Part shown: piece by piece, positions 34,778 to 60,871 of the stretch | How positions within the stretch are numbered: the first letter of the stretch is position 1 | Layout of the letters: each line of letters opens with the position of its first letter | Virus record (IMG/VR): IMGVR_UViG_3300031857_000168 | Coordinates: 1-62,900 of that record | DNA from: a virus | Lineage: Duplodnaviria > Caudoviricetes | Reading direction: 5' to 3' (one strand) | Length of the DNA stretch: 62,900 bases | The notes under the pieces: generated by a model | What the model was told of the DNA's origin: nothing | Seen by the model: only the letters and a program-made list of their open reading frames with translations | Databases searched by the model: none | Program-made: the position numbers and the translations under genes

Positions 34778-35167
34778 ATGCGCGAAGCGTTGCTTGAGCC
34801 GATCATATCCGCGATCAGGAAAGGCACTGCTTTACCGCGCCAAGAAATAGAGAAGTACTTAGCTGACTGGGATGTGATCCCGGTAGAAGCTGATGATAAA
34901 CACGCAGCAACAGTGATAGCCAAAGGCACTGAAATACACATAGCGCTTGCCAACGGTTATCAACCAAAAACTTGCAAACGCGGAGTTATAAAGCAGTTTC
35001 TAAAACCGCTGTTTGATAAGTACGGTTTTGTTACAACACGGGTTTCCCATAACCGTCTAAATGAGAAAAGGTTTGTAGAGCGGGTCGGATTCAAACCGAC
35101 ATGGAGCGATACAGAGTTCCAATATTACTTCCTCGGCTCAATGCCGTTTGAAAGGAAAGCTAAATGA
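34778..35167 (+). CDS. GNAT-fold acetyltransferase-like protein of ejection module
   Basis: TRV...N....RFVERVGFK motif; typical position. Confidence 0.6.
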   Translation: MREALLEPIISAIRKGTALPRQEIEKYLADWDVIPVEADDKHAATVIAKGTEIHIALANGYQPKTCKRGVIKQFLKPLFDKYGFVTTRVSHNRLNEKRFVERVGFKPTWSDTEFQYYFLGSMPFERKAK

Positions 35168-36330
35168 ATTTTCAAAAAACGTACATGTCTCGCGCAGTAA
35201 CCCGCGCGATGGCCGCAGAACATCCTATCGGCGATCCTTTTGGCGGTCCAGCTTTTGGTGAGCGCAATGACCCTATAAGCGCCGCGATCTCTATCGGTAC
35301 GATGTTTGCCACCGGCAGCGCTATGATGGCTGGCTCAGTGATGGCCGGTATCGCTTTTGCTGGTGCAGCGGTTAGCCTTGTTGGCAATATCACAGGCAAT
35401 AAAACGCTGATGCAGTTAGGCGCGGTAGCCGGTATTGTCGGCGGCCTTGGCAGTATGGGTGCGTTCGGTGAAGGCGCGAAAAGCGCTACTTGGTCAAGCC
35501 TTGGTTCTAGCGGCAGTGCAGCTGCCGGCGGAGCTAATGTCGCGCCTCTAGCGTCGACTTCTTCAGCCGCCCCTTCGATAGATGTTTCAGCTGGCGGGGC
35601 AGGGCCAAACACCACTATGTTTGGCGGAACGTCATCAGCTGCAGCAGCTCCCTCGGCGGCGGCCCCAGTTACATCTGCTGTTCCAACACCTAACATCACC
35701 TCTGCTCCGATTAACGCTCAAGGCGTCCCATCGGCTTACGGCCAAGACATATTTAAAACGGCCAGCATGCCGGGCAGTGCAACTGCGGCGGGCACAAGCG
35801 CTACCGCCGCTGGTAACCTCGGCAGCGCTACGACGCAGGCAGCGGATGCTTACAGCGACATTGTTTCTGCCGCTGATCTTGGTTCTCAAAATACAGCTTT
35901 TGGAAATAACATTACTGCTACTGGCGCGGCAGGCGGTACAACTTCTGCTATTCAACCGCAGACCATGTTTGAAAAGGCGATGGGCTACGGCAAAGGCGTC
36001 ATGGATTTTACAAAGGAAAATCCCATGGGTGCCTACCTGCTTGGTAACACTGCCGGCGGCGTTGCGGATTGGTTGTCTGGTAAAACAGACGCAGAACTTG
36101 AAATGCTAAAAGCTGCAACCGCTGCAAAACGAGCTGAAGAAGAAGTGTATGGTGTGCGCGCCGATGCCATGCGGGCTGAAATTGAAAGAGAAAAACAGCG
36201 CCGTGCAAACCTTAATGCCGGCTATCAGCAAGTCAACGCCGGCGTCAACGTAAACCCTAACGCCTACGTTCAACAGCCTTGGGGACAACAACAGCAACCA
36301 GCTGGCCTGATCGCTGGCGCACGTACGTAA
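35164..36330 (+). CDS. Ejection (DNA transfer) protein, Gly/Ala-rich
   Basis: Hydrophobic Gly/Ala N-terminus, low complexity, no Cys. Confidence 0.65.
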   Translation: MNFQKTYMSRAVTRAMAAEHPIGDPFGGPAFGERNDPISAAISIGTMFATGSAMMAGSVMAGIAFAGAAVSLVGNITGNKTLMQLGAVAGIVGGLGSMGAFGEGAKSATWSSLGSSGSAAAGGANVAPLASTSSAAPSIDVSAGGAGPNTTMFGGTSSAAAAPSAAAPVTSAVPTPNITSAPINAQGVPSAYGQDIFKTASMPGSATAAGTSATAAGNLGSATTQAADAYSDIVSAADLGSQNTAFGNNITATGAAGGTTSAIQPQTMFEKAMGYGKGVMDFTKENPMGAYLLGNTAGGVADWLSGKTDAELEMLKAATAAKRAEEEVYGVRADAMRAEIEREKQRRANLNAGYQQVNAGVNVNPNAYVQQPWGQQQQPAGLIAGART

Positions 36331-36343: not shown

Positions 36344-36853
36344 ATGGCTGACGGACTTATTCAAGACAATATGGCCCAACCGGGCAATGACTCGCAGATT
36401 AATTCGCAAGTCATTAAGCAAAACATAAAGATGCCTCCAGAATTACAAGAAGCCTATGAGCGCGTCGTGATCGCGGGGATGAAAGTAATGTTCTCTAAAG
36501 AGAGCCACGACTTTATGCTGCGCCAGTTACAGCAAGGCGGTTCTCTAGGTGAAAAGCTTGGCAAAGGTGTAGCCGGTCTTCTGCTTGTATTGTTCAAGCA
36601 ATCAAACGAAACAATGCCCCCACAGGTGATCATCCCCGCCGGCGTTGAGCTAGTAGCTCAAGCAGCTGACTTCCTGAAGGAGGCCGGCATGGAACAGCCG
36701 ACTAACGACGACATCGGTCAGGGTATCCAAATTATGATCTCCATTATCTTGGAGAAGTTTGGTGTCCAGCCTGAGCAAATGCAGCAAATGCTAAATCAGT
36801 ACAGCAATCAAAACATCCCGGCACAAAACGAAATGGGAGGTCAGAATGCCTAG
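36344..36853 (+). CDS. Hypothetical ejection-module protein
   Basis: TAAGGAG SD. Confidence 0.7.
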   Translation: MADGLIQDNMAQPGNDSQINSQVIKQNIKMPPELQEAYERVVIAGMKVMFSKESHDFMLRQLQQGGSLGEKLGKGVAGLLLVLFKQSNETMPPQVIIPAGVELVAQAADFLKEAGMEQPTNDDIGQGIQIMISIILEKFGVQPEQMQQMLNQYSNQNIPAQNEMGGQNA

Positions 36854-37661
36854 CCTTAGCGGCCTTATCGGCGGCGTTATTGGCGGCGCTGCTGGAGCGT
36901 ATGGCGAAGTCGCGCTTTCTGAATTGAAAAACAAACAGCGTATTGATATTGAGAAAGCGCTGTCTGAAGTAATGTTTGAACGCGACCAGCGTATTAAAGA
37001 AGCGGACTTGATGCGCTCACGCGGTGAAGAAGAGCGCAAACTGTCGCCGGAATACATTCAAAGAGTTGGCGCGGCTGATCTAGAGAAGGGCAAAGTAAGT
37101 CTTAAAAACCGTGAACAACTTGCACCGGAGACTGGGCGTGTTGGTGCGATTGAAGCGACAGCCGCTATCCCGGCAAAAGACATCGAAGCTCAAGGTGAGA
37201 CAAGCCGTAAGATGACACAGACCAAAACGATGGCCGGTGATAAAGGGTTTGTCAAAGGCGTCGAAACGCTGGACATTGCGCAGAAAGCTGGCGATATCGT
37301 AGCCGCGCGCGAGAAGGCAAAGATCAGATTGGAAGGCGGTGGCGGTGGTGGCGGTGTTGGAAAAGTGCGGTCTACATACACGGATGACCAAGGAAACAAA
37401 GTGGCCGTTATGTCAGACGGCAGCACTAAAGTGCTGGGCCGTGCAGCTGACTTTGATAAAAGCGTTGCTGGCATCGTTACTAAGCTTAGTAAAGAAGACC
37501 CGAAATATGATGGCACTGCTTTCAGCAAATTGCCAATTAGCCGCCAGCGTGAGATCGCTACTCAAATTCTTACAGGCCAAGGTAGCAGCACAGGCGGCGG
37601 TGGTACGGGCGGCGGTAATAAACGGGACCTATCTGGTCTGTCAAAGTTTGAGCGTCAATAA
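36846..37661 (+). CDS. Ejection protein
   Basis: GGAGG SD; GLIGGVIGGAAG start, coiled coil. Confidence 0.65.
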   Translation: MPSLSGLIGGVIGGAAGAYGEVALSELKNKQRIDIEKALSEVMFERDQRIKEADLMRSRGEEERKLSPEYIQRVGAADLEKGKVSLKNREQLAPETGRVGAIEATAAIPAKDIEAQGETSRKMTQTKTMAGDKGFVKGVETLDIAQKAGDIVAAREKAKIRLEGGGGGGGVGKVRSTYTDDQGNKVAVMSDGSTKVLGRAADFDKSVAGIVTKLSKEDPKYDGTAFSKLPISRQREIATQILTGQGSSTGGGGTGGGNKRDLSGLSKFERQ

Positions 37662-37670: not shown

Positions 37671-40600
37671 ATGGCGTTTGACGTCGAAGGTGCACTCGCG
37701 GCTGGCTACAGCCGCGCAGACATTGCTGAGTATCTGGCATCGAAGAAAAACTTCGACGTCGCCGGTGCCCGCGAAGCAGGATATACGGACGAGGATATCG
37801 TTTCTTACCTGTTGCCTGAAAAACCTTTGGCCAAAGCAGCGCCAGTAAGCGCGCCAAAAACTGACACCGTACAAAACCCGCTTGCTGCCAAAGAGCCGGG
37901 GATCATTGACCGTTTAGTCACCGCTGTCAAAGACGTTGGAAAACCTTCCAGCGTTATGGACACCTACACACCAACCGCCGAAGATCAGCAAAAGGCTATC
38001 GACAAACGGCTATCGCTGGGCCAAGGGCCCGTCAGTGAAACAGCAGTAGCCAAAGCGCAGGACGTCCGTACCGGCCGATTGAAGACTGAAGATCAAGGTC
38101 TGATTCGGCTTGCAAAAGCTTTAGAACAGCAACAAGCCCCCACTTTAGAAGGTGTAGCTCAGCGAGTTACCGAAGACGAACGTCTTGCTGATGAAGCCGA
38201 GACCGCCCGTCGCCGGGCGCTTGCCCGCGAAAACCCTTTATTGGGTAGCCTGCAATCAGGTCTTGCCAGCATGACCGCTGGCGGTTTGAATCTTCCCAGT
38301 GTTGCTGCCGATGCTTTCAATCAAACCTTCGTCAACCCGGTTCTTGAAGCCGCTGGCTTTTCTCCGCTTGACCGCGTATCCACTGCATACGGCACCGAGT
38401 ATTTAGCCAAAGCCGCTGAAGACTACATGCCGTCAGTCGGCCGGCAGGGCATGGCTGAAGCGTACGATAAAGGGCAATTCGGCCAATGGTTGTTCAGCAA
38501 CATGGCTGCCAACTCTCCGCAAATTGCGATGTCTTTGGCGGCCGCGTATTTCCCGCCTTTGCGTGCCAGCATTCTGCCAGCTATGGGGTCAACGACCGCT
38601 GGCCAGAGCTTTGCCGCTGGCGATGACTCCCGGGTTGCGGCTGCCAAGGGCGCGGTCGAAGTCGTCACCGAGATGCTGCCACTGGGCGTGTTCGACAAAG
38701 TAGGCGACGTCCTGCGCGGCATGTCTGTGCCCAAGCAGAAAGCTGTTCTTGCGATCGCTGGCCAGCGGCTTCTGCAGTCGGGCGCCCAGATCAGCGCGGA
38801 CATGCTGACGAATGCCGTCGAAGAAGCGGCCGCGCAGTTCGGCGGCAATGTGCTGGACAGGTATTTCCAAGGCAAAGACGTTGAGTTGACTCAGGGTCTG
38901 GCTGATGCATCTGTACTCGGTGCAGCCACTGGCGGCGCTATGGGCGCCCCCCGTTCCGCTGGTATTTTGGCTGGCAAGTTTGAACCGGTTACGCCTGAAC
39001 AGCAGATCGCAGATGCTATCAATCAAAACGTCCAGCAGATGCAACCCGTCGGTGCCGAACTGGAAGCTGTCGCGGCGCTTAGCCCGACACCGATAGACCC
39101 GGCGGTCCTTGCCCAACGGATTCTGCAATCCCGTACGGTAGACGACGCTATCTCAGCGGCTGAGCAAGCCGCCGGCGGTATCCCTCAAGTAAGTTACGCG
39201 CCATCTTTGGCGCCGGCTGCGGCTGCGCCTTTGCCAGCCCCAGCCCCAATCCAAAATCTGCCAACAATCCCTAGTGTTGCAGAAATACAACAGGAGCAGC
39301 CGACCCTGAACATGGGTCGAGTAGAGCCTACGCTTGGGCCCGTGCCAGAGACAGGCACTGTCACACTACCAGAACCCAGCGTTGCGGTTGAACAACAGTT
39401 CGGCCTTGATAAGTTGCGGCTGGCCCCACGCCCACAGCGGATTCAAGGGCAATCTGTGGCAGACTTGTCAGACGACCAGCTGCGCGCTGTGGTTGAAGAC
39501 GAGGCCGCCCCCGCCATCACCCGCAGGGGCGCGCAGATTGAACTGGACGCACGCCGCTCTGAACAAGGACCCGCCCGTGTCGAACCAACCCTCACCCCTA
39601 CAACGGAAGTGCCTGCAGCCGCAGCTGAACCTGTGGCTGGCGCGCTTGAGCCCAGTGCGGTCCGAGCAGATGCGCAAAGATATCTTGATGAGCAGGCAGC
39701 TACCGAAGGAATCGAATCCCCGGTCCAGCTGAACCCGGCCCCGGCGGAAGAGCAGACCGCAGTCAGCGAAATAGCGCAGGCGCTGGGTAGCCAGTTCGGC
39801 ACCAAGATCGAAGCTTACAGCGACGCCCGGGATACGGCGGTGAACGGCTTTGCGTTTAAGGGCACAGCCTTCGTCAATGTAGCCAACGTGCCGATGAACA
39901 TCACGCGCACGACCTTGCATGAGTTCAAACATACCGTCGAGCAGATTGCCCAAGCTGAGACCGAGGCAGGTTTAACCGGTACGGCGGCCCAGCAGTTTGT
40001 CGCTGACATTGACAGCATATTCGACGACATCACGGAAGAAGGTCGCCGCGCGTACGCAGAGAATTTCCTGTTTAAGGAAGAGCTGGATAATCTGACTGGC
40101 GCCAAACGCGAGAAGCGTTTACGGCAACTGTTGGCCAGTCCGACTTTGCGCTCCGAAATGACCGCCGACTTTATCGGCAACCGCGCCACGGACAAAGCCT
40201 TCTGGCAAGACATCGCCGCGCAGGACCCGGAAGGCTTTAAGGGTTTTGTCGAGAAGTGGTTGAAGATCATCGACAACCTGTTGGCTACGCTGCGCGGTAC
40301 CAAAACTCAGACTAGAAAAGAATCGGCCAAGGTCGATAAGTACATCCGCGATCTGAACACCGCGAAGATGATTGCCCGCGACGCCCTTATAGAGTATCGT
40401 CGGGGAGCTTTGACAGAATCGCAAAGGGCAGCCCCCGAGGGCAAACCGGCTGCCAGCCTGAGAGAAGGAGAAGGTCGTGAAACAAATATCCCCGCCGGAG
40501 GTGAAAGCGTACAGCCGGCTGCAGAGCGAGCTGGACCGCCAGTTGGTGAAGCTGGGCGCGGTGAAGTCCCAAGCTACGGAGAAGCCCGTGAAGGCGCTAT

Positions 40601-43118
40601 CTCCGTCATCGGACGACACTACTCGCCCAGAGTCCAGACAAGCTTAAGCAGTGGCTACTATGGATCAGGTCTGCGCGGTGCTGAAGCCGGCCGGCTGCGG
40701 GAAAGCAACGACCCCCGTATCTCCAAACGCATCTACTTCTACGTCGACACCGGCAAAGGTATCCGCCCCGAATCGGGCGTTGGCCGCTTTGCTCACGAAG
40801 TCCGTCTCGATAATATCTACGATCCCGCGTCCCGCCTGATCCCACCACAAGGTAATGCAAATGCATTCGAGTCGGCGGTAATCGACGCCGGGTTCGACGG
40901 CTACATCGCGCCCTTCGGTAACGGTGCGGCGGTTGTCGTGCTAGGTCCGCAGCACAACGCTGTCCCAGTTAAGTCGCTGGAGCAGGTTGCTTTTGCAAAG
41001 CGCGAGAAGACAACCGCGATCGGGGATTTCGAGACCGTGCCGCAGAAAGACGGCGGAATCAAGGTGCTTGGGGCGGCTGATGAAATTCGAGCTGTCATGC
41101 CAGAGGGGGTGGTCGGGCGGCCGGTTGAAGGTGGCATCCTGTTTACCCCGGCAAACGCTCCCCGCGTGCGCGCGGCACTGGAAGGTAGGAAGCTGGCATA
41201 CAGCCGGGCAGGTGCGGTCGTTACTAATCTACCGATGAAAAACGGGGTGTATGTTGGCGCGCCACCGAAGTACAACACGCCTGCCAAAATCGCTACTCTG
41301 CGCAAGAACTTACGCAAGCTAACCTTTGAAGGCGCGCCCGGCAAGTATTGGTATGAGAACAGCGGTAAAGAAGTTTTGAAGATGGTCGGTGGTGACGTGC
41401 AGGAGGCGCGTAAATTCGTCGCGTTGTTGGCGATCTACTCGCCACAAGCTAAGGTTGATGCTAACTCCACTTTCGCCCTGCGCGCGTGGGCCCAATACAA
41501 AGCCGGCCAGCCGATTAGCGTTAAGACCGGAGTCATGGATAAGAAAGCAAAAGCGGCACTGGAAGATGTCGATGCCTTCTGGTCAGGTGAAAAGACTGGC
41601 AATTTCTTCAATAACCTGTTGCGCATGATCGACCCCAGCACGGCCGGCAAGCAGGGTGCGACGATTGACATGTGGATGATGCGCGCTGCCGAATATCCGA
41701 CTGACGCCCCGACCGCTACGCAATACGCGTTTATGGAGAATGAGACCAACGCGATTGCAAAGGAACTCGGCTGGGAACCCCAGCAAGTACAGGCTGCAAT
41801 CTGGGTAGCGATGAAAGCCCGGATGGAAAACTCCGGCGTCAAAAAACGTACTGAAGAGTCTAGCGAAAAGAAAGGCTGGATTCGGTACGACTACCCATTG
41901 AAAAACGGAAAGCCGACAAAGACCCGCGTCATCCTTGACGCGCAGAAGCACCGAGACAATTGGCTGCAAAAAGCTTTTGCGCACGACCCTTCGGGAAGTG
42001 ATACCGCACAAGCGAAGTTTGATTTCGGTGATGGGTTGAAGCGGCACCTTGGCCAGATTTCGTTCGAGGCTAGACCCGGGCGTACAACTAACGTGCTGCC
42101 CGGAATTCATACCGCGCCGTATGCGCAGCAAGTTGAATTCCAGCAGGCGGTGCAGGCTGCTTTCTTGGACGACACCGGCGCTGATCGGCTGGCGCAACTG
42201 CTTGGCCTGCTTGTTGATACGAATGACATTTTGGTGCCCGGTATATGGCAGGGGGATGTATCGCCTAGTTCCCAGAAGCTGGTCGCCATGGCGCCGGCAA
42301 AAGGTGAAGCGGGTAAGACTGAAGTTGATCCAGCTCAAGCCGAGGCCCTCGATCTATACGCCGCCGTAGCGGGTCTGGTGGCCCGGCAGGAAGGCGTCGG
42401 CTGGCACCGGCCATTCTTTGCTGGCACGAAGCGCGATTCAAACGGTTTGGATATCGATCTTGGTCGGGCGATTAACCCGGCGGAAGCGGCCGATCTTGAG
42501 CGGGCGCTTGGCGTGTGGATGGAAAACAACAAAAAGGCAAATTGGCAAGACAGCTTTGCCTTGATCAGTTCCCCGGAAGGCATCCGTCTGGTAAATTTTG
42601 GGGTAGTCTCGAACGAGACTTTACAGTCTGATATTGTCAAGGTTGCCGAATCGGTGCTGCCCGATTTCGACTACCGGGTGTTCGCTTCGAGCGGTAATTT
42701 GGTTGGAAATAATTGGAAGGAAAATCCTAATGGGGAAGGCTACGTACAAAGGCTTAGTGCCGCCGGGCGATCCGATGTTCTCGACTGGGCCCGAACTGTA
42801 CTCGCGCCCAGAGTCCAGTCCGTCTTCGATGAGTACAGCAAGAAGTATGACTGGGGAGACCCCGGAAAAATCAGCTTCAGCAAACGAGAAGCTGAAGGAA
42901 GAAATAAAGAAATTGCAAGAGAGATTCAAGAAGTAGTCCAGCCTGATTTAGAATCCCTTTTCAGAAGTTTGAACGGCCGTGGCCTTAAACGCACCCGTGC
43001 AGAGGCTACGGTATCCGCACGTCCCGATGCAGCCCGCATCAACTACATACAAGAAAATTTCCTTGATATCTTGTCGGAGCTTGAAGACTCAGGCAAAGTC
43101 AAGATTAACTGTGATTGA
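37671..43118 (+). CDS. Giant polyvalent ejection protein 1 (HExxH peptidase-like, ART-like, HhH-glycosylase/DUF7178-like modules)
   Basis: LHEFKH..SEMTAD; RHYS..YGSG..IYFY..GFDGY; YWY..LAIYSPQ..GEKTGNF..TIDMWM..QVQAAIW. Confidence 0.75.
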   Translation: MAFDVEGALAAGYSRADIAEYLASKKNFDVAGAREAGYTDEDIVSYLLPEKPLAKAAPVSAPKTDTVQNPLAAKEPGIIDRLVTAVKDVGKPSSVMDTYTPTAEDQQKAIDKRLSLGQGPVSETAVAKAQDVRTGRLKTEDQGLIRLAKALEQQQAPTLEGVAQRVTEDERLADEAETARRRALARENPLLGSLQSGLASMTAGGLNLPSVAADAFNQTFVNPVLEAAGFSPLDRVSTAYGTEYLAKAAEDYMPSVGRQGMAEAYDKGQFGQWLFSNMAANSPQIAMSLAAAYFPPLRASILPAMGSTTAGQSFAAGDDSRVAAAKGAVEVVTEMLPLGVFDKVGDVLRGMSVPKQKAVLAIAGQRLLQSGAQISADMLTNAVEEAAAQFGGNVLDRYFQGKDVELTQGLADASVLGAATGGAMGAPRSAGILAGKFEPVTPEQQIADAINQNVQQMQPVGAELEAVAALSPTPIDPAVLAQRILQSRTVDDAISAAEQAAGGIPQVSYAPSLAPAAAAPLPAPAPIQNLPTIPSVAEIQQEQPTLNMGRVEPTLGPVPETGTVTLPEPSVAVEQQFGLDKLRLAPRPQRIQGQSVADLSDDQLRAVVEDEAAPAITRRGAQIELDARRSEQGPARVEPTLTPTTEVPAAAAEPVAGALEPSAVRADAQRYLDEQAATEGIESPVQLNPAPAEEQTAVSEIAQALGSQFGTKIEAYSDARDTAVNGFAFKGTAFVNVANVPMNITRTTLHEFKHTVEQIAQAETEAGLTGTAAQQFVADIDSIFDDITEEGRRAYAENFLFKEELDNLTGAKREKRLRQLLASPTLRSEMTADFIGNRATDKAFWQDIAAQDPEGFKGFVEKWLKIIDNLLATLRGTKTQTRKESAKVDKYIRDLNTAKMIARDALIEYRRGALTESQRAAPEGKPAASLREGEGRETNIPAGGESVQPAAERAGPPVGEAGRGEVPSYGEAREGAISVIGRHYSPRVQTSLSSGYYGSGLRGAEAGRLRESNDPRISKRIYFYVDTGKGIRPESGVGRFAHEVRLDNIYDPASRLIPPQGNANAFESAVIDAGFDGYIAPFGNGAAVVVLGPQHNAVPVKSLEQVAFAKREKTTAIGDFETVPQKDGGIKVLGAADEIRAVMPEGVVGRPVEGGILFTPANAPRVRAALEGRKLAYSRAGAVVTNLPMKNGVYVGAPPKYNTPAKIATLRKNLRKLTFEGAPGKYWYENSGKEVLKMVGGDVQEARKFVALLAIYSPQAKVDANSTFALRAWAQYKAGQPISVKTGVMDKKAKAALEDVDAFWSGEKTGNFFNNLLRMIDPSTAGKQGATIDMWMMRAAEYPTDAPTATQYAFMENETNAIAKELGWEPQQVQAAIWVAMKARMENSGVKKRTEESSEKKGWIRYDYPLKNGKPTKTRVILDAQKHRDNWLQKAFAHDPSGSDTAQAKFDFGDGLKRHLGQISFEARPGRTTNVLPGIHTAPYAQQVEFQQAVQAAFLDDTGADRLAQLLGLLVDTNDILVPGIWQGDVSPSSQKLVAMAPAKGEAGKTEVDPAQAEALDLYAAVAGLVARQEGVGWHRPFFAGTKRDSNGLDIDLGRAINPAEAADLERALGVWMENNKKANWQDSFALISSPEGIRLVNFGVVSNETLQSDIVKVAESVLPDFDYRVFASSGNLVGNNWKENPNGEGYVQRLSAAGRSDVLDWARTVLAPRVQSVFDEYSKKYDWGDPGKISFSKREAEGRNKEIAREIQEVVQPDLESLFRSLNGRGLKRTRAEATVSARPDAARINYIQENFLDILSELEDSGKVKINCD
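40477..40647 (+). CDS. Candidate nested +1-frame ORF A (56 aa)
   Basis: AAGGAG 6 nt before GTG; MKQISPPEVKAYSRLQSELDRQLVKLGAV amphipathic helix. Confidence 0.45.
   Translation: MKQISPPEVKAYSRLQSELDRQLVKLGAVKSQATEKPVKALSPSSDDTTRPESRQA
42730..42936 (+). CDS. Candidate nested +1-frame ORF B (68 aa)
   Basis: AAGGA 8 nt before ATG; MGKATYKGLVPPGDPMFSTGPELYSRP, C-terminal helix. Confidence 0.55.
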   Translation: MGKATYKGLVPPGDPMFSTGPELYSRPESSPSSMSTARSMTGETPEKSASANEKLKEEIKKLQERFKK

Positions 43119-43126
43119 GGTAGCCC

Positions 43127-43618
43127 ATGAAACCTACAATGATTATCGCTGGCAATATAAAAGCTTTGCTAGATGACGCCATCCATTCAGAATTGTATGC
43201 GTCAAATCTATACAAGCACATTGCTAATTCAATGCAGAAGCAAGGATACTTTGGCGCGCAGAAATTCTTTTTGAAAGAAAGCGCCTCGGAGCTGGAGCAT
43301 TATCAATCGCACGTTCAGTTTCAAAACGATGTTGGTGCTCAAGCTAAAGTGCCGGCAATCGAAGCCATGACCGAAGAAGTCAATGGTTTGATTGACGCGA
43401 TTGAACTTGGCTACGAAACAGAACTCGAACTATATAACGACTACAAAAAGTGGTACTCAGCAGCCGGGGTCGACCCCGTAGTACAGCAATTCCTTTTGCA
43501 GTTTTTAGAGTTGCAGCGAACTAGTGTTGGTGAGTATGGTGATTTGCTGGCGCGTTTGGCTTTGGTCGCTGATGACAAAGCCGGCATCCTGTTGATAGAT
43601 CAAGAACTAGGTGGTTAA
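43127..43618 (+). CDS. Ferritin-like protein
   Basis: SELYASNLY, GAQKFF..E..ELEH, YETEL, QQFLLQFLELQ, GILLIDQEL; 163 aa; GAGG SD. Confidence 0.85.
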   Translation: MKPTMIIAGNIKALLDDAIHSELYASNLYKHIANSMQKQGYFGAQKFFLKESASELEHYQSHVQFQNDVGAQAKVPAIEAMTEEVNGLIDAIELGYETELELYNDYKKWYSAAGVDPVVQQFLLQFLELQRTSVGEYGDLLARLALVADDKAGILLIDQELGG

Positions 43619-43620
43619 TC

Positions 43621-46600
43621 ATGACATGTACTTACCGGTTTACAGACACTGACGGTAAGCAAGTAGTCATTCAAGGACAGGCTGCGTTCAAAGCTTTTTT
43701 AGCTGAAGGCGGTTTGGAGCGACTGGGAATTACTGCTCCTCAAAAACCTGTTTCTTTCCAGCGGCGTCAAGGCAATGTGCTTGATAGAATACCGGAACTT
43801 GATTTGCGTGACGCTGCAGACGCCATCGCAAAGATGGACCCCGACGTTCGGGATGACACCATGCTTGGCGATTTCCCCGGGGGCGCCGATGGGTACAACC
43901 TATACGAAGCCAGAACACTGCTTAAAAAACCTAGCGAAAAACTAAAGCGCGTTACTGAAAGCAATAGTTTTTCGTTGTGGCAACAGTATGATTACATTGC
44001 TAACGCAGACGGTGAATACTTCGGTGTAACCAAAGAGGAAGACCCGGACGAACCGGATGACGAAACGAAATTTGTATATTCGTTTTCTCCGCTTGATAAC
44101 CCAAGAACCGGCACTACAACAACGACTGATCAGACTGACGAGCTATTCAGAGAGATGCGCGCATCACTCGGTGAAGCGCCAAAATTTCAACGCCGCCAAG
44201 TTGATATTGGCGCAGCTCTTCAAGACAGAGTAGATAATGATTTTGATGCGTTGGTTGAAGAGTACAATCGGCTTGAAGGTACAGATAACGGCGTAGTTCT
44301 TGACGCTGATATCGCCCGCGAGCTTTCTCCTGAATACCGCGCGGATCGGTCCAGAGCTGGTGAGGTGCATGAAGCTGTCGGTAATTTTATCGATAAGCTT
44401 TACGAACAGCGGATGCAAGAAACCAGTCCAGATGGTTTGGTTGTGTTGATGGCTGGCGGCGGTGGTGCCGGCAAATCTAGTTCAAAAAATCTTCTTGCTG
44501 ACGCCTATAGCCTTGCCGACATTATTCTTGACGGCACCTTGTCTACTTACAAAAGCGCCAAACAGCGCGTGCAGGCAGCGCTTGACGCCGGTCAAGATGT
44601 AAACATTGCCTACATATACCGTGACCCAGTAGACGCTGTAAAAAACGGTGTGCTACCACGCGCCATGCGGACTGGGCGCGTCGTGCCTGTTGACGGTTTG
44701 GTCAAAGGCCATGCAGGATCAAACGAAACCATACGCAAACTGCAGGAAGACTACGGCGACAATCCGGCGTTTAAGATATTTGCTGTAGATAACTCTAGGG
44801 GTGAAGGTAACGCGGCGCTGATTAATGTAGATGAAATCCCCCGCGTTGAACGAGAAGGTTTAAAAGAGGAGTTGATAAATGCAATCAATGAAGAATACAA
44901 AGCAGGACGAATCAGCGAAAAAATCTATCGCGCCTCGCTCGGACAAAGTACCAGAGAAGGTGCTGCTGCGACGCAAAATGTTCGAGAACAGATTGAAGAA
45001 GGCGTTCGCGAACGGAGGGGACCTGTCGGGCAAAGAAACGCCGTAGCATTTCAAAGACGGCAGCGCGGCCGTGAGACTGAAGGCTGGGTTCTCAGCCGCG
45101 ATGAGGTAGGTCGTTTCCGTTTCGGCGCTGGCGCAAAAGCGTACCGCTACGCTGCGGACGTCGCTAACCTAGTGCTCGATAAGATTGGCATGAAGCCGGT
45201 CAGCGAGGACCTTGGCCGCGCGATGCGCAAGATGAAGGCGGAAGTAGAGCGCGCTCAACGTCTAACCGTAGACGTGGCTGCCAAGATGAAAGACCTGCCG
45301 GAACAAGAACGGCAAATGATTAGCGACGTGATCGAGGGTGAATTAAAGCGCGGAGTCAAACCGCCACAACACGTGCTGATGTTGGCAGCGTCTCTGCAGT
45401 CAATCATGTCTGAACAATCTGCAGAACTGGTGCGCTTAGGTATGTTGTCGCCCGAAGCAGCCGGCCGTTGGGATGGTAAATACCTGCCACGCTTCTACGA
45501 ACAGAAGCTAGGTGATGAAGTTAAGGCGTGGTCAAAGGCAGCCAAAGCTTTGCTTGGCCGTAAGAAAACCATGCAGGGCATCGGCGGGTCTAGCCTAAAG
45601 TCTCGCGGCATGTTTGAACTAATCAACACCGACGACCTGCAGGACTGGTTGGATGAAGGCTGGGAGATTAGGGATAAAGATTTCGACCCGGCTGTTGATG
45701 ACACAGTGATGGTGTGGCGGGACTACACCCGCAAAGAACGTGACGACATGGGCGAAATCAGAGACGCCATGTTCCGCTTCGTGATGGGCTACAACAAATC
45801 CCAGCGGGACATTGCGCTTGGCCGCCTGTACGAATCGCTCGCCGATAACTTCGCCAGCAAAAGAGAACTGCCGGGGTATGTGAAAGTACCGGATACTTTA
45901 GTCGAGGATACGTTTGCCCGCAGATACGGCAAGCTGGCAGGTAAATGGGTGCCGGCTGAAGTCATGGACCACCTATCTGCATTCGACCAGTCGCAACAAA
46001 ATGAGCTGCTGAAAATGTATCTCAAAGGTTTGTCGATGTGGAAGGAAGGTAAAACTGTTCTGAATCCGGTGTCGCATGCCAACAACGTAATGTCTAACGT
46101 GACCATGGCGCACTTCGCCGGCGTGTCTTATTGGGACCTTCACAAGTACGCTGGCGCCATGCGTGATCTGCTGAAGAATACTCCGATGGTGCAGGAAGCG
46201 TTAGACGCCGGCCTGTTTGGCGGTACGTTTAACCGCGCCGAACTGTTGGATCAGATGCCGCCGCAGCTAAAAGCTTTGGCTGGCATGAGCGAGTCTCGCC
46301 TGAAAAAAGGCGTCGATACAGTTTGGAACGCGTTGAGCTGGTTCCTGCGCAAGCCTGCAGCCACAGCATACCAAGCTGAAGATCAGTTCTTCCGGTACCT
46401 TATCTACAAAGACGCTCGCGATCGTGGGTTAGATGTTGACGACGCGATAGATTATTCTCAGCGCTACATCTTCACCTATGATGATCTGCCAAGAGGCGCA
46501 CGCGTGGCCAGAGATTTTGCGCTGCCATTCTTTGCCTACACTTACAAAGTTGTGCCGCCTATCGTAAACACAGCCCTAGAAAAACCATGGCGCTATGCTG

Positions 46601-47454
46601 CCCCGGCGGCAGCTTTGTACGCCATCAATGCCGCCATGTACGCTATGGCCGCAGGGCTTGGCGGCGGTGAGGATGAAGACTGGTGGACGGTCATCCGGCG
46701 CTATGTAACGGACCCGGAGTTCCGCGACAAAGCAAAAAAGATGGAAGAGCAGGAGCGAGAAAACCTACCGCCGTGGATGAAGGGCGCCAGCTTTACATTA
46801 GGTACTCCGAAAGCAATCCGCATGGGCATGGACGACGTGACAAACTTGCCGCTGTTCCTTGACGTCAGCCGAATTTTCCCGGGCGGTGACCTGCTTGACG
46901 CGCATGCAAACGCTGGGGGCGTACCGTTGCTACAACCAATAACACCTAGCAACCCAGTGCTCAATACTGTCGGCGCCATGATCTGGAATAAGGACAGTTT
47001 CTTCGGCAAGGAAATAGTTGATAAGAACGACACGGCTGCCGAGGCGGCTGAGAAGCGTGGCCAGTGGATATGGAAGCAGTTCAGTCCTGCCGTCGCCGTG
47101 GGTAACTATCACTGGGACCGCGCCATGAATGTCATCGCCAACCAGACAGGCCAACCGGTTTTCGGTTATACCGGCATCGGTAAGGACGGCCTCCCGGTAC
47201 AGCTCCCCTACGCCGCCGCTCAAACTGTCGGTATTAAGATCAGGCCGATCGATCTCGAACTGTCTGAACAAATCTCCAAATCCGAGCGGGAGAAAACTAT
47301 TCGTGACCTTGACGCCGAGATCAGACAGATCAAGCGGCTGGAGAAGAAAGGCGCCATAACCGAGAGCGCAGCAGAGAAGCAGATCGAACTTCAGAAAGAA
47401 AAGAAATCGAGACTTAAAGAAGGTCTTACGGTTGAAGGCGAGAAGCCTAAATAA
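43621..47454 (+). CDS. Giant polyvalent ejection protein 2 (zeta-toxin-like P-loop kinase + helical LPD38-like C-terminus)
   Basis: LMAGGGGAGKS, ILDGTLS, RAMRTGRVVP; YLPRFY, PFFAY, ENLPPWMK. Confidence 0.75.
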   Translation: MTCTYRFTDTDGKQVVIQGQAAFKAFLAEGGLERLGITAPQKPVSFQRRQGNVLDRIPELDLRDAADAIAKMDPDVRDDTMLGDFPGGADGYNLYEARTLLKKPSEKLKRVTESNSFSLWQQYDYIANADGEYFGVTKEEDPDEPDDETKFVYSFSPLDNPRTGTTTTTDQTDELFREMRASLGEAPKFQRRQVDIGAALQDRVDNDFDALVEEYNRLEGTDNGVVLDADIARELSPEYRADRSRAGEVHEAVGNFIDKLYEQRMQETSPDGLVVLMAGGGGAGKSSSKNLLADAYSLADIILDGTLSTYKSAKQRVQAALDAGQDVNIAYIYRDPVDAVKNGVLPRAMRTGRVVPVDGLVKGHAGSNETIRKLQEDYGDNPAFKIFAVDNSRGEGNAALINVDEIPRVEREGLKEELINAINEEYKAGRISEKIYRASLGQSTREGAAATQNVREQIEEGVRERRGPVGQRNAVAFQRRQRGRETEGWVLSRDEVGRFRFGAGAKAYRYAADVANLVLDKIGMKPVSEDLGRAMRKMKAEVERAQRLTVDVAAKMKDLPEQERQMISDVIEGELKRGVKPPQHVLMLAASLQSIMSEQSAELVRLGMLSPEAAGRWDGKYLPRFYEQKLGDEVKAWSKAAKALLGRKKTMQGIGGSSLKSRGMFELINTDDLQDWLDEGWEIRDKDFDPAVDDTVMVWRDYTRKERDDMGEIRDAMFRFVMGYNKSQRDIALGRLYESLADNFASKRELPGYVKVPDTLVEDTFARRYGKLAGKWVPAEVMDHLSAFDQSQQNELLKMYLKGLSMWKEGKTVLNPVSHANNVMSNVTMAHFAGVSYWDLHKYAGAMRDLLKNTPMVQEALDAGLFGGTFNRAELLDQMPPQLKALAGMSESRLKKGVDTVWNALSWFLRKPAATAYQAEDQFFRYLIYKDARDRGLDVDDAIDYSQRYIFTYDDLPRGARVARDFALPFFAYTYKVVPPIVNTALEKPWRYAAPAAALYAINAAMYAMAAGLGGGEDEDWWTVIRRYVTDPEFRDKAKKMEEQERENLPPWMKGASFTLGTPKAIRMGMDDVTNLPLFLDVSRIFPGGDLLDAHANAGGVPLLQPITPSNPVLNTVGAMIWNKDSFFGKEIVDKNDTAAEAAEKRGQWIWKQFSPAVAVGNYHWDRAMNVIANQTGQPVFGYTGIGKDGLPVQLPYAAAQTVGIKIRPIDLELSEQISKSEREKTIRDLDAEIRQIKRLEKKGAITESAAEKQIELQKEKKSRLKEGLTVEGEKPK
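44879..45046 (+). CDS. Candidate nested +1-frame ORF C (55 aa)
   Basis: GAGGAG 7 nt before ATG; ends exactly before the third FQRRQ linker. Confidence 0.5.
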   Translation: MQSMKNTKQDESAKKSIAPRSDKVPEKVLLRRKMFENRLKKAFANGGDLSGKETP

Positions 47455-55823: not shown

Positions 55824-58148
55824 ATGGACACAAAGCCAAGCGTCTTGCCGGTGAAGCTTGAAAACATACCTGACAGTTTGAAGCAGATGAATTGCTGGGT
55901 GATGTGGGCTTACACCAAGAGACGCAACAAGAATACGGGTGAAGAGAAGTGGGCGAAGGTACCGTACAAGATCGATGGCCAACCGGCGAGTAGCACGAAC
56001 GCTGCGACATGGTGCAGTTACGGTGATGCAGTTGATGCGTTGGTGTTAGGTGATATCGAGTTCGACGGCATCGGTTTCATGCTCGGGCCAGAGGTGCAGG
56101 GGATAGACCTTGATGATTGTTTGAATGAAGACGGGCTATCTGATCTTGCGAAAGAGACGTTGGAGCGGGTGCAGGGATACGCCGAGGTGTCACCGTCCGG
56201 TACCGGGATCAAGATATTCAGTCGCACGAACCTTGACGGCGGGCGTGCGGACAAACAGCAAGGTGTTGAGCTATACCGCGAGGGAAGATATTTCACAGTG
56301 ACCGGCCATCTGATTGGTGAGGATCACAAAGACCTACCTGTTGGCGTGCAGGACATTGATTGGTTAGTGCAGAAGGTATGGGGCGAGAAGATGGCCGGCG
56401 CAGTGCTGACGGCCGACAAAGAAGAGCTGGAGTTAATGCTCTACCGCGCACCACTAGAAGATTGGGACGCCGACAGAATCCGCGACGAGGTCGCACCTTA
56501 CCTTGATCTGGACATGCACTATGAGGATTGGATCAGGGTCGGGCAGGCACTGTACCACCAGTTCGACGGGGAGCTAGAAGGGTTTGAGTTGTGGGACGAG
56601 ATGTTCCAAGACAGCCCGAAATACGGTGGCAGTGATTACGGGTGGGAGCGCTGGCGTTCGTTCAAGTCGCAGCGTGCGTCAGGCAGAGGGCCGGTGACGT
56701 TGGCGTCGGTGCTGAAGATGGTCAAAGGCAAACGTCAGGAGGTCAAGCGCAGCGAGCGCGACAAGCTGATGTCTGAGCTGATGCAGAAGATTGAAGACAC
56801 GACCGACCCCCGGGACTTGCAGGAACAGGTCGCTGCCAAGGTGGCGAACGAGTCTGAGTTGTCAGACGTCGAGCGGGAACAGGTCGCCGGCGCTATCCAA
56901 GCGAGGGGCCGCGCACTGGGCGTGAAGCTTGAGATATCAACCGTCCGTGGCTGGGTCCGTGCTCGCGTCAGGGGTGCCAAAGGTTTCGTGCATCTAAACG
57001 ACGACGGGCATCCGCTGTGCACACTTGAAAACTTCCGGGCCCTAATCGAACGACTGGACTGGATCGTGCGGTACAACGTGATCAAGAAGTCGATCGAGGT
57101 CCTGATCCCGGGTGCCGAGTTCACGCGGGACAACCGAGACAATGCCGCACTGGCGTGCGTCCTGTCTGAATGCGAGAAGGTCCGCATGCCGACCAAGCAC
57201 GTGGCGCAGTACCTGATCAAGGTCGCCGACGAGAACCAATACAACCCGGTCGGGACTTGGATCATGAGTAAACCTTGGGACGGCACGTCAAGGCTGGAGG
57301 AGTTCTTCGACACCGTGCAGTCCCCGTCCCCTCTAAAGAAAAAGCTGATGCGCAAGTGGTTGCTGCAAAGCGTGGCCGCAGCCATGTCGCCGGACGGTAT
57401 CGCCGGGCAAGGGATTCTGGTGTTCGTCGGACCGCAGAATATCGGCAAGACGACATGGTTTCAAAGGCTGGCACCGACGGACCTTGACGTGATCATGACC
57501 GGACACACGCTCGACTTGAAGAGCAAGGACTCGACCTTCATCGCGTTGACCTACTGGATCGTGGAGTTGGGGGAACTGGACGCGACATTCAAGAAGTCCG
57601 AAGTGTCAGCCATGAAGGCGTTCGTCACGCAGCCCGTGGACAAGCTAAGACGCCCATATGCGGCCGTCGAGTCGTCCTTCGGCCGGCGGACCGTGTTCGG
57701 CGGTTCGGTCAATGAGGAACAGTTCCTGAACGACTCGACCGGGAACCGGCGCTATTTCACGATCCCCGTCGTCGGGTTCTCTTTCAATCACGGGATCGAC
57801 ATGCAGCAGCTGTGGGCCGAGGCGATGTACCTGTGGCAAGGCGGGGAGGTGTTCTATCTGAACATGGACGAGGTCGCCGAGCTGAACGCCCATAACGAGT
57901 CGTTCCTGACCGTAGACCCGATCGAAGAACGGGTGGCGGCAGGTTACGGGTGGGGTGATCACGTCACGATGTGGGATTGGATAACGGCCTCTGAAGCCCT
58001 GATTCGGGTGGGCGTGAGAGAACCTACTAAGACGCAAACCATAACGGCGTCGGCGGCCCTGAGACGTTTGAACGGGGATCAGCGCCGCCGTGCTAACGGT
58101 AAGACGCTGTTTGCGGTGCCTTCTGGTACGAATGAGTTCTTAGAATGA
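55824..58148 (+). CDS. Primase-polymerase (AEP, NrS-1-like) + PriCT-2 + VapE helicase
   Basis: GIDLDDC, EVSPSGTG, ELY..GRYFTVTG; YEDWIRVGQAL; GPQNIGKT. Confidence 0.9.
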   Translation: MDTKPSVLPVKLENIPDSLKQMNCWVMWAYTKRRNKNTGEEKWAKVPYKIDGQPASSTNAATWCSYGDAVDALVLGDIEFDGIGFMLGPEVQGIDLDDCLNEDGLSDLAKETLERVQGYAEVSPSGTGIKIFSRTNLDGGRADKQQGVELYREGRYFTVTGHLIGEDHKDLPVGVQDIDWLVQKVWGEKMAGAVLTADKEELELMLYRAPLEDWDADRIRDEVAPYLDLDMHYEDWIRVGQALYHQFDGELEGFELWDEMFQDSPKYGGSDYGWERWRSFKSQRASGRGPVTLASVLKMVKGKRQEVKRSERDKLMSELMQKIEDTTDPRDLQEQVAAKVANESELSDVEREQVAGAIQARGRALGVKLEISTVRGWVRARVRGAKGFVHLNDDGHPLCTLENFRALIERLDWIVRYNVIKKSIEVLIPGAEFTRDNRDNAALACVLSECEKVRMPTKHVAQYLIKVADENQYNPVGTWIMSKPWDGTSRLEEFFDTVQSPSPLKKKLMRKWLLQSVAAAMSPDGIAGQGILVFVGPQNIGKTTWFQRLAPTDLDVIMTGHTLDLKSKDSTFIALTYWIVELGELDATFKKSEVSAMKAFVTQPVDKLRRPYAAVESSFGRRTVFGGSVNEEQFLNDSTGNRRYFTIPVVGFSFNHGIDMQQLWAEAMYLWQGGEVFYLNMDEVAELNAHNESFLTVDPIEERVAAGYGWGDHVTMWDWITASEALIRVGVREPTKTQTITASAALRRLNGDQRRRANGKTLFAVPSGTNEFLE

Positions 58149-58159
58149 GTGCATTAGAG

Positions 58160-58387
58160 GGGGTAATGCACTGGGTAATGCACGGGGGTAATGCACTGGT
58201 CAAAAGCCGCATGAATACTAGCTTTTTCTTAGTTATAGTGTATTAGTGTAATACTTACTAATACAACTGTAGTAAAGGTATATAAATAAAAAAAGGGGTT
58301 TTACCTAGTAAAGGTATAGGAATTCATATGCACTGCACTGCACTAATGCACTGTACTGCCCTAATGCACTGGCCAAATGCACTGGAA
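58160..58387. repeat. Second copy of putative origin iterons
   Basis: TAATGCACTG repeats and AT core retained. Confidence 0.65.
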
Positions 58388-58392
58388 GGGCT

Positions 58393-58659
58393 ATGCGGGA
58401 AATAAGGGTCGAAGACCGGCTGAGGCAAAGAACTGAAGCGGCCGGCGGGATGTGTATTAAGCTTGTCATATTGGCTACAGCGGGGCTCCCCGACCGACTG
58501 GTGCTTTTACCGGGAGAGAAGTTGATGTTTGTAGAAACAAAAGCCCCGAAGAGGGGGCCGACTGCTTTGCAGGAATACATGCATCGCAAAATCAGGGCGT
58601 TGGGATTTAAGGTCCACGTCATCAATACCTTGGAGGGGGTCGATGCACTTTTCACCTGA
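58393..58659 (+). CDS. VRR-NUC nuclease (copy 2)
   Basis: One amino acid difference from copy 1. Confidence 0.85.
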   Translation: MREIRVEDRLRQRTEAAGGMCIKLVILATAGLPDRLVLLPGEKLMFVETKAPKRGPTALQEYMHRKIRALGFKVHVINTLEGVDALFT

Positions 58660-59974: not shown

Positions 59975-60459
59975 GTTTGAATGAAAAGATATCGTCGGCA
60001 CAGACGTCAGACAATCTTAGGGAAGTGCCTGCGGAGGACATCGGGGACGTTGACATCATAAGGGCCTGCGGAATGGTAGGCGTGCAGATGCCATTGGGAT
60101 TGGCGCTTTGGCGTTTGAAGTACAGCGCAGCACACAGAGAGTTTCCTACAGTCGTTGACGGCCTGTTGACGATGGTGCTGTCAAGGTTTCATGCGGTGGA
60201 TGGTTTGAAGACTACACACAAGGTGATCAGGCATTGGTTGGATGATGTGTGCAAGCATTGCAATGGGAGGGGCTACGAAGTGATACCCGGCACGCCTGTA
60301 TTGGATCAAAAGCATTGCCAGCCATGTAGTGGACAGGGACGCGTCAAGCTGCCGGAGCCGGATGCCGCGTCCCTTTGGTTGATGGAAGAGATTGCAAGGA
60401 TGGAGCGAGAGGTCGCTGCCGCGATATCGCGAAAGCTTAATTCTCGACTTGATCTTTGA
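59971..60459 (+). CDS. Q-like zinc-finger regulator (copy 2)
   Basis: Allele of 2754-3242. Confidence 0.55.
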   Translation: MSLNEKISSAQTSDNLREVPAEDIGDVDIIRACGMVGVQMPLGLALWRLKYSAAHREFPTVVDGLLTMVLSRFHAVDGLKTTHKVIRHWLDDVCKHCNGRGYEVIPGTPVLDQKHCQPCSGQGRVKLPEPDAASLWLMEEIARMEREVAAAISRKLNSRLDL

Positions 60460-60871
60460 GTGCTTCCCGGTTGATGTAAAAGCCTTCTTGAACGACTTGA
60501 TTGCAGCACGGACAGATTAGTCGTTCTTCACGTCTTTTCAGTGCACGGTGTACCGCTGACGCGTTGATACCTACTTCCTTTGCAGCAGCATAGGCGGTAT
60601 ACCCGTCTTTCAAAACGAGGTCTACCGCTTGCATGGTTTTAGACTTTGTCTCTGCAAAAGGATCGTCACCGTCTCTTGACCATACGACGACGATGTCATC
60701 CGGCCAATCGATCGGCCGCCCGGTGTAAGCAGCCGCCGATAGTTTGCCGGCGTTGTTCCACGCCACTAAGTATTTCAAGTCTTGATTTGTAGACATGGTT
60801 CTTAGCTTATGCCGGACAGACTCCGACCACGCGAAGTCGTCAATAAAACGATCAAGGTCGACGAGCGTCAT
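60437..60871 (-). CDS. HTH protein (copy 2, divergent N-terminus)
   Basis: Allele of 3220-3654. Confidence 0.7.
   Translation of the reverse strand: MTLVDLDRFIDDFAWSESVRHKLRTMSTNQDLKYLVAWNNAGKLSAAAYTGRPIDWPDDIVVVWSRDGDDPFAETKSKTMQAVDLVLKDGYTAYAAAKEVGINASAVHRALKRREERLICPCCNQVVQEGFYINREALKDQVEN

Follow-up and report, generated by a model that had tools for sequence, protein, structure and literature searches.

In the viral record IMGVR_UViG_3300031857_000168 (Duplodnaviria; Caudoviricetes), whose positions 1 to 62,900 we have analysed as one stretch of DNA (hereafter the window), what is, judged from its sequence, a giant polyvalent and ejected phage protein is encoded as two halves, an N-terminal one (A) and a C-terminal one (B), with a ferritin gene wedged between them. 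Each half contains a single cysteine (Cys), and the two Cys residues are found at the facing termini, within two short modules that we call the tail (the C-terminus of A) and the head (the N-terminus of B). Tail, ferritin and head behave as one cassette, which is gained or lost as a whole among related phages. The junction consists of the following elements, in window coordinates.

37671..43118, plus strand: gene A, 1815 amino acids (aa), sole Cys at residue 1814, the penultimate one (TGT, 43110-43112), C-terminus ...KVKINCD followed by the stop codon.
42891..43115, plus strand: tail module, residues 1741-1815 of A, ~75 aa, ending ...KVKINCD with the Cys codon at 43110-43112.
43127..43618, plus strand: classical ferritin, 163 aa, no Cys (Pfam Ferritin PF00210, 3.4e-16).
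43621..47454, plus strand: gene B, 1277 aa, sole Cys at residue 3 (TGT, 43627-43629), N-terminus MTCTY.
43621..43755, plus strand: head module, residues 1-45 of B, beginning MTCTYRF... with the Cys codon at 43627-43629.

An initial annotation of the window had pointed to the sole terminal Cys of each giant and to a ferritin-like open reading frame (ORF) placed tightly between them, and both the residues and the coordinates are as it claimed, the ferritin ORF lying 8 nt past the stop of A and 2 nt ahead of the start of B. Together A and B contain two Cys in 3,092 residues. If the Cys content of the other greedily called ORFs of the window is taken as the background (185 Cys in 16,900 residues, some spurious frames included), the probability of finding zero further Cys in the 3,090 other residues is ~2e-15, and by an arithmetic estimate it is ~1e-4 with a virion-protein Cys rate of ~0.3%. 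The Cys pattern of A and B is far from chance.

The terminal Cys of A is conserved throughout its family. A profile of the tail has retrieved 227 representatives at E<=1e-3 from 1.84 billion proteins, and the counts given here refer to the best 150 of these 227. A Cys occupies the last or the next-to-last position in 148 of the 150 (97 at -2 and 51 at -1), the other two being a truncated fragment and a low-complexity false match; the conservation in homologues that the initial annotation had called for is thus borne out. The match reaches the last or next-to-last residue in all but eight proteins (P0070, P0089, P0135, P0141, P0145, P0151, P0152 and P0153), six of which carry a short extension that again ends in Cys, while one is truncated and one is the low-complexity match. 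The terminal Cys is the sole Cys in 140 of the 148 tail-bearing proteins, including 75 of the 79 that are at least 1000 aa long, and together the 148 proteins have 162 Cys in 190,164 residues, with only 14 of them off the terminal position. An ancestral domain in which tail and head are still unsplit was not found among these matches, which sit at protein ends. A search of viral contigs with P0107 yielded no relatives, and one with P0152 yielded only loci that have one cargo domain in common.

The surroundings of the Cys are less constant. The residue that precedes it in the tail may be N, K, S, V or E, and a variant tail of the form ...TEDNKSCL, followed by the stop, retains the Cys at -2. 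This KSCL type has one representative in viral contigs, L110 (65% GC), with a tail, an overlapping ferritin and a head that reads MACTYR, and its B contains one Cys in at least 2,505 residues. In the head alignment C3, Y5, F7, G12, G19, K24 and L27 are invariant, the residue that follows the Cys varies (T, K, R, S or N), and a word search of the head region has returned 6 proteins. Apart from the terminal Cys themselves, no conserved His or Cys is present near them in the tail and head alignments. The tail Cys is encoded by TGC in 32 cases and by TGT in 3, and the head Cys by TGC in 32 and by TGT in 9; since both synonymous codons are used at both sites, what is under selection is the amino acid, not the adjacent start and stop signals, and an RNA-level cause is ruled out.

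We have then compared split and fused forms of the giant, starting from the C-terminal module of B. This search gave 94 loci with the module, namely 66 split loci (46 non-duplicate, window included), 10 fused loci, and 18 that are cut plus unclassified. A ferritin gene is present in 65 of the 65 split loci whose upstream side is visible, and each of the 62 tails that are visible has a terminal Cys, at -2 in 61 of them (INC[DK]) and at -1 in one (INC). A head is present in all 66 split loci, with the consensus M-x(1-3)-C-x-Y, and its Cys is the sole Cys of B in 65 of them, the exception being L078, a cut locus with one extra. The few extra Cys in the A frames are confined to the first 23 residues of the stop-to-stop frame and probably precede the start codon. 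Across lineages the gap from A to the ferritin gene measures 7-12 nt and that from the ferritin gene to B -13 to +5 nt. This variation between lineages, and the use of three different frames in the window, rule out read-through or frameshift fusion of A, ferritin and B.

The 10 fused loci (9 distinct), on the other hand, encode a single ORF of 2508-4088 aa in which A-like N-terminal parts are combined with the B module, and they have no tail, no head and no ferritin; in 8 of the 9 distinct fused giants there is no Cys at all. Ferritin is likewise found in 0 of 10 whole records that are fused or possibly fused, 3 of which are at least 90% complete. The only fused giants with Cys are those of L058 and L059, which have three, arranged as C-x5-C-x3-C at residues 1659-1669, probably a metal site in one cargo domain. 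A tree built on the C-terminal module has the fused forms at its base, and one fused clade (L075-77) falls within the split clade, at a support of 100. There are at least two changes between split and fused on this tree, and tail, head and ferritin change together each time. The co-occurrence test proposed in the initial annotation, in which the two Cys modules and the ferritin were to be set against fused versions, therefore came out as expected: the parts are gained or lost together, and the fused ORFs are without all three.

Searches that start from the ferritin have led to the same arrangement. All six hits in viral contigs lie in the triad of tail, ferritin and head, and so do four of five in contigs of metagenome-assembled genomes (MAGs), the fifth being cut after the ferritin; an AT-rich MAG form of the triad reads ...KIDRIC and stop, ferritin, MANPCKYY. 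In metagenome contigs we have obtained 80 loci, of which 63 have both Cys modules and 8 are consistent with the triad but cut, and a head was scored by script in 70 of the 80; a single Cys module alone is seen in 0 of the 71 metagenome loci with both flanks visible. Nine of the 80 loci were scored by the script as being without both modules, and on inspection they turned out to be L195, L187 and seven loci in a different context. L195 is a divergent triad (...RTCEFE and stop, ferritin, MAKKIKCKV) with a single Cys in both flanking proteins. In L187 (about 520-970) an extra ORF, HAD-phosphatase-like and starting with DxDGV, lies between the ferritin and the B head, so the cassette can take in a further gene. 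The triad is retained from ~34% to 65% GC and between ferritins that are only 49-50% identical (L110, L115 and L195).

In the other seven loci (L161, L162, L166, L179, L182, L186 and L192) the ferritin gene is located directly 3' of a portal gene, at about 1400-2000 of each locus, and at least three portal families are involved. The gene that follows, where it can be named, encodes a scaffold (L166) or a head protease (L182). In length and in the invariant residues specific to the clade these ferritins do not differ from those of the triads, and the ferritin of L192 is 80% identical to that of the triad L115. Whether ferritin is spread independently of the split, as the initial annotation had asked, thus has an asymmetric answer: every split comes with a ferritin, but a ferritin occurs without a split in 7 of 80 loci. 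Both contexts, after the portal and inside the ejection protein, are sites that encode head-internal proteins, and the portal context suggests a capsid-internal ferritin in otherwise unrelated phages, so that packaging of the ferritin in heads may be envisaged.

The ferritin itself appears to be complete. In the window it covers positions 2-141 of the 142 of PF00210, and its residues 12-161 align to solved ferritins (best 6lbd, 3.7e-9), a coverage that spans the four-helix bundle and the E helix of a full-length classical ferritin; it also matches the Rubrerythrin family (8.9e-8). The ferroxidase ligands are intact: E22, Y29, E55, H58, E99, E128 and Q130 are invariant in 14 phage ferritins, their roles being mapped by alignment and by the numbering of E. 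coli FtnA, and this invariance makes a working ferroxidase centre probable. The phage ferritins are not depleted of Cys (0-4 per protein, 0.76% over 44 sequences), so the constraint on them differs from that on A and B. As 13 of the 44 are Cys-free, the ferritin cannot be the partner of each terminal Cys, and a disulfide from A or B to the ferritin is ruled out.

A and B are both mosaics. BLAST comparison with related viral contigs has revealed a conserved N-terminal module in A, a very conserved C-terminal module of ~800 aa in B, and variable cargo between, the cargo modules being shuffled between A and B among relatives; A shows a mosaic homology to both the A-type and the fused giants. The recognisable parts outside the tail and the head, together with a recurrent linker, are as follows.

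39918..39932, plus strand: HEFKH motif, residues 750-754 of A; all 42 distinct long proteins compared, whether A or fused, have an HExxH.
40992..41006, plus strand: linker FAKRE, residues 1108-1112 of A, coinciding with the end of the conserved N-terminal module (BLAST breakpoints).
42876..42890, plus strand: linker FSKRE, residues 1736-1740 of A, directly 5' of the tail module.
43756..43770, plus strand: linker FQRRQ, residues 46-50 of B, closing the head module.
44185..44199, plus strand: linker FQRRQ, residues 189-193 of B, at the border of the zeta-kinase-like module (BLAST).
44518..44760, plus strand: Zeta_toxin-like P-loop kinase, residues 300-380 of B (PF06414, 1.2e-14), a movable cargo module.
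45049..45063, plus strand: linker FQRRQ, residues 477-481 of B, ahead of the constant C-terminal module.
45064..47451, plus strand: constant C-terminal module, residues 482-1277 of B, LPD38-like, with 80% mean column identity over 16 sequences.

The kinase module is located in A, not in B, in L012, L013, L020 and L022. The LPD38 likeness comes from PF18857 on the ESM Atlas clusters nearest to the C-terminal module of B and from P0157, which has LPD38 in the same region. Pfam places DUF7178 at residues 1223-1383 of A and, in relatives, ART-PolyVal, InPase, LPD37, LPD38 and MuF_C, and one fused relative has an N-terminal SLT transglycosylase domain. The HEFKH motif is likely to be the active site of a zincin-like metallopeptidase, which we read as the MPTase domain of polyvalent proteins after PMC5512222; no match to a peptidase family was obtained with Pfam or other profiles. 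A profile search of the Protein Data Bank (PDB) with the tail and the C-terminal module returned only marginal matches (a de novo TIM barrel, E 0.0026; a tail protein, E 0.003), no RNA polymerase domain was detected in A or B, and neither PHROG nor Pfam gave a match of the gp50/gp71, gp51/gp72 or gp52/gp73 type for A, B or the three small ORFs upstream of A. As very large mosaics with several effector and LPD domains, A, B and their relatives are of the polyvalent-protein type, whose members are described as packaged in the head and then injected (PMC5512222). They also share the Cys suppression that has been reported as a conserved feature of the ejection operon in N4-like phages and tied there to passage through the oxidising periplasm (phage DEV, PMC11445570). 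At its start (37671-37820) A has a duplicated motif of ~25 residues, FDVxGAxxAGYxxxDIxxYL, which is also present in fused relatives (BLAST of A 1-89 to L076).

The linker, F-[SQA]-[RK]-R-[QE], is found wherever two modules of A or B meet, exactly at the BLAST breakpoints, and the tail (A 1741-1815) and the head (B 1-45), being bounded by it, are discrete modules. Relatives have the variants MFSNRQ and VMASNRA at these borders, and in the basal fused forms the motif is mostly missing. The cargo homology of A to the fused giant of L074 ends exactly at the ISFS of the pre-tail linker, and the cassette of L080 is flanked on both sides by a repeated linker, DVMASNRA, of which the fused sister lineage has a single copy. 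The motif could be a cleavage site of the HExxH peptidase or a recombination joint; taken with the conserved HExxH, the linkers suggest proteolytic processing.

A complex of tail and head, which the initial annotation had suggested modelling, was predicted in three runs from 80 aa of the tail (with an alignment of 18 rows) and 50 aa of the head, along with 3 controls. The pair scored 0.51, against 0.01 for the best control; at least 87% of the contacts are common to the runs, and the partners have a predicted local distance difference test (pLDDT) value of at least 67. The verdict of the tool is 'weak support', so the expected docking came through, but weakly. In the calibration of the tool 58 of 80 solved complexes attained this mark, as did 2 of 110 mismatched pairs; among those attaining it, scores at or under 0.60 belonged to only 7 of the 80 solved complexes and to both passing mismatches.

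Our preferred reading, itself tentative and somewhat short of probable, is that tail and head dock on each other and that their thiols form a disulfide or metal bridge, by which one chain is restored, with the ferritin as a head-internal passenger and possibly as the oxidant. A and B together would amount to one giant capsid-packaged ejected protein, which in some relatives is a single chain of 2,500-4,100 residues. The cassette sits at one inter-module linker and comprises a ~75-aa tail with a stop, a translationally coupled ferritin gene, and a start with a ~45-aa head; the gene would be split because a ferritin cannot be embedded in a long chain. Docking of the tail on the head would then pair the only two thiols of ~3,100 residues, and these could form a covalent or metal-mediated bridge, most likely a disulfide made once the particle meets oxygen, a form that would suit particles free in oxygenated water. 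The bridged chains would behave as a single unsplit chain through packaging and threading through the tail of the virion, and the bridge could reopen once in the next host, whose cytoplasm is reducing. The ferritin would be a catalytically intact passenger inside the head, whose iron and oxygen chemistry may supply the oxidant.

Several observations weigh against this reading. The changes between split and fused forms number only about two, plus the switches of ferritin context, so much of the co-occurrence is shared ancestry. The general absence of Cys from A and B is a property of ejected proteins that has already been published (PMC11445570), and in our unrelated loci L095-L109 it extends to 11 of 14 distinct giant ORFs of >1,800 aa, which have 0 Cys; the new part is therefore the retained terminal pair. 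If the linkers are cleaved by the HExxH peptidase, tail and head are lost from both giants, and a bridge would be relevant only before processing. The docking score of 0.51 lies in a band in which, by the tool's own account, errors outnumber correct calls unless the pairing was already likely a priori. Ferritins of the same clade function next to portal genes without Cys modules, so the clade is not specialised for the junction and the ferritin is not a dedicated cross-link-installing enzyme. Of the ferritin-mediated re-joining put forward in the initial annotation, the co-occurrence thus stands and the dedicated enzyme does not; the portal-context ferritins indicate a function of their own, beside which a catalytic side role may still be played. 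Moreover, three different ferritins searched by tblastn against 50,697 isolated-phage records gave 0 matches. Finally, neither the Tyr that follows the Cys of the head nor the Asn that precedes the Cys of the tail is found in every lineage, and this speaks against a chemistry based on Cys-Tyr or on Asn: a Cys-Tyr thioether is unlikely, as the Tyr is replaced in L195 (C-K-V), and a chemistry of the asparaginyl-ligase or Asn-cyclisation type is ruled out, as the Asn is missing in IKC, IVC, IEC, IQC and RIC tails.

Other explanations of the same arrangement have also been considered. Tail and head might be adaptors that bind to a ferritin oligomer placed between A and B in the capsid core, with the Cys residues ligating iron or contacting the ferritin, an arrangement we regard as unlikely. 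It would fit with the strict linkage, in which no split exists without ferritin (65/65) and no single module is found (0/71), with the translational coupling implied by the short gaps, and with the other site of the ferritin, after the portal and before the scaffold or protease, which is typical of head-internal proteins. However, the portal-context ferritins, with the same length and invariants, need no tail or head, a disulfide to the ferritin is impossible for the Cys-free 13 of 44, the tail-head pair by itself scores above its controls, though weakly, and L187 has its extra ORF between ferritin and head.

More improbable is a metal or iron-sulfur site, in which the Cys of at least two A-B pairs would hold Fe, Zn or a small Fe-S cluster that the ferritin supplies, with no disulfide formed. 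In rubrerythrins a di-iron domain is combined with an Fe(Cys)4 site, and the Rubrerythrin match of the ferritin, as well as the linkage to an iron-storage gene with invariant ferroxidase ligands, would be in keeping with such a site; nevertheless each chain offers only one Cys with no other conserved His or Cys nearby, the residues flanking it vary in both tail and head, and iron-thiolate sites are, by general chemistry, oxygen-labile in free particles.

It is also distinctly improbable that no special chemistry is involved, i.e., that an auxiliary iron gene was inserted together with re-association modules and that the Cys are packing residues kept by descent. Such a view would account for a co-occurrence that is mostly traceable to few events and for a ferritin that functions elsewhere without the modules. 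Against it stand the strong selection against Cys in these proteins, visible in the 14 non-terminal Cys of the 148 tail-bearing ones, and the persistence of the pair where nearly all other residues of tail and head have changed (L115, L195 and the KSCL variants); for packing, Ser, Ala or Val would suffice. Very improbable, lastly, is a locking on the host side, in which the Cys stay reduced in the particle until the disulfide machinery in the periplasm of the next host oxidises them and so locks A to B in a trans-envelope conduit, for although ejected proteins have been reasoned to shun Cys because of the oxidising periplasm (PMC11445570), which would leave the terminal pair as the only substrates, this leaves the obligate ferritin unexplained and needs both termini to be exposed to the periplasm simultaneously.

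Taken at its widest, the preferred reading of a bridged tail and head would amount to an undescribed mode of building a virion, with a head that carries an active ferritin of its own and, where the ferritin gene interrupts the giant, two dedicated terminal modules that re-join the halves head-to-tail through the only two thiols of the entire ejection machinery. This redox- or iron-gated clasp would be made inside the capsid with the aid of ferritin chemistry and opened in the cytoplasm of the next host; we consider this possible, if doubtful.

The cassette is found at the end of a late block, which lies downstream of the terminase, portal, capsid and fibre genes and closes with small ORFs, A, the ferritin and B. 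The initial annotation had counted four Cys-free ORFs upstream of A; three of them are indeed Cys-free, but the fourth, an ORF of 129 aa at 34778-35167, has a Cys at residue 66. The three lie directly 5' of A.

35164-36330, plus strand: Cys-free ORF, 388 aa.
36344-36853, plus strand: Cys-free ORF, 169 aa.
36846-37661, plus strand: Cys-free ORF, 271 aa.

None of them has a match in Pfam or PHROG, and they are candidate small ejection proteins by their position and by the Cys suppression published for ejection operons (PMC11445570). The window further encodes a terminase, a portal, a major capsid protein that is distant kin of the capsid proteins of N4-like and other podoviruses, tail and fibre proteins, a family A DNA polymerase, a helicase, an exonuclease and a VapE-type primase; no tRNA was found by ARAGORN. 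Its two ends are near-identical, the first ~5.7 kb (1-5700) matching the last (57218-62900) at 85-98% identity and a spacing of 57.2-57.7 kb, and one genome length of this complete viral record of 62,900 bases is thus ~57 kb. The near-copy ends and the helicase-like ORFs that occur twice imply that the record exceeds one genome length and joins two slightly different variants; a concatemer, or variants of a population assembled into one record, may account for this.

A unit of 107 nt occurs four times (65-100% identity to the reference copy) at 20815-21896, as two pairs 132 nt apart, inside a gene for a fibre or decoration-like protein of 769 aa (20167-22476). At 23288-29096 two adjoining proteins of ~950-990 aa carry four Laminin_G_3 (concanavalin-like) repeats each, and are likely to be receptor-binding fibres or spikes. 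No isolated phage is close: the A-B region has no megablast match among isolated phages, and B gives by tblastn distant partial matches in 5 isolated-phage records, four of them in Helicobacter prophages. The short MAG contigs that carry the triad (L111-L114) belong to bins of Cyanobacteriota, Burkholderiales, Rhodoferax and Methylobacter; these would point to freshwater Burkholderiales, Rhodoferax and Methylobacter as hosts, but are weak hints at best, as is the binning of phage contigs in general.

Compared with known systems, the giants are of the polyvalent ejected kind, and the junction of ferritin and terminal Cys is a new variation on it. Like the polyvalent proteins as described (Iyer, Burroughs, Anand, de Souza, Aravind 2017, PMC5512222), which include the N4 virion RNA polymerase gp50 and DEV gp71, A, B and their relatives are giant mosaics among virion genes, with an HExxH region, cargo of the ART-PolyVal, InPase, MuF_C and LPD37/38 types, and hardly any Cys; unlike them, A and B are split in two, and the split is marked by a ferritin gene and two modules with terminal Cys. 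The words ferritin, cysteine, disulfide, split and linker do not occur in the main text of PMC5512222, and our search of the literature, supplements aside, has found no published account of a ferritin between the halves of a phage giant protein, or of terminal Cys at such a place. A thiol pair kept at a gene split is a sharp and testable exception to the avoidance of Cys, and points to chemistry (disulfide, metal or iron) inside the virus particle, while the cassette and the linker motifs offer a way into the shuffling, and perhaps the processing, of polyvalent proteins.

Encapsulins with ferritin-like cargo (10.1101/2025.06.18.659913) likewise associate a ferritin-family protein with an HK97-type shell. 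The phage ferritin, however, is a classical full-length one, not an encapsulated ferritin, and its gene belongs to a phage head module, with giant ejection-type or portal genes, not an encapsulin shell gene, as neighbours; in both contexts the phage ferritins measure ~160-166 aa with no extension, and no terminal targeting peptide is seen on them. Ferritin-fold proteins have been found with virions by mass spectrometry in phage G (ps248/gp346, PMC12484599) and in the Vi01-like phage Sajous1 (gp217, PMC10892097), which are different phages and contexts, as reported there with no link to a split giant or a terminal Cys. With a phage-specific ferritin clade in contexts of head morphogenesis, one may ask whether the heads of phages, too, are loaded with iron-handling cargo in the manner of encapsulins.

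Dassa et al. (2009) have reportedly described fractured genes in which split inteins are separated by a free-standing gene. There, too, a gene is broken by an inserted gene, with short re-association modules at the new termini, and our tail and head (~75 and ~45 aa) are close in size to intein halves; in our cassette, however, the Cys positions are reversed, the first chain having its Cys near its end and the second near its beginning, a ferritin intervenes and not a homing endonuclease, and splicing by a peptide bond is not expected. Split inteins have a nucleophile (Cys, Ser or Thr) as residue 1 of the N-intein, and His-Asn followed by a nucleophile where C-intein and extein meet. A split intein is in fact rejected for this junction: the nucleophiles are inverted (the tail starts AEGRN... 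and has its Cys only at the end), no conserved His-Asn closes the head, whose end reads ...QKPV/SFQRRQ, and the IKC, IVC, IEC, IQC and RIC variants of the tail lack the Asn ahead of the Cys. Joining proteins end to end is a use to which the tail and head pair could be put, as a compact natural tool. In AB toxins, one inter-chain disulfide persists while a chain is threaded, unfolded, through a narrow channel, and its reduction in the cytosol releases the chain. By analogy A and B would be two chains held on one, here hypothetical, disulfide, with no homology to the toxins; if true, such a bridge would do, without an intein, something analogous to protein trans-splicing, and would be for phages what the disulfide is for AB toxins.

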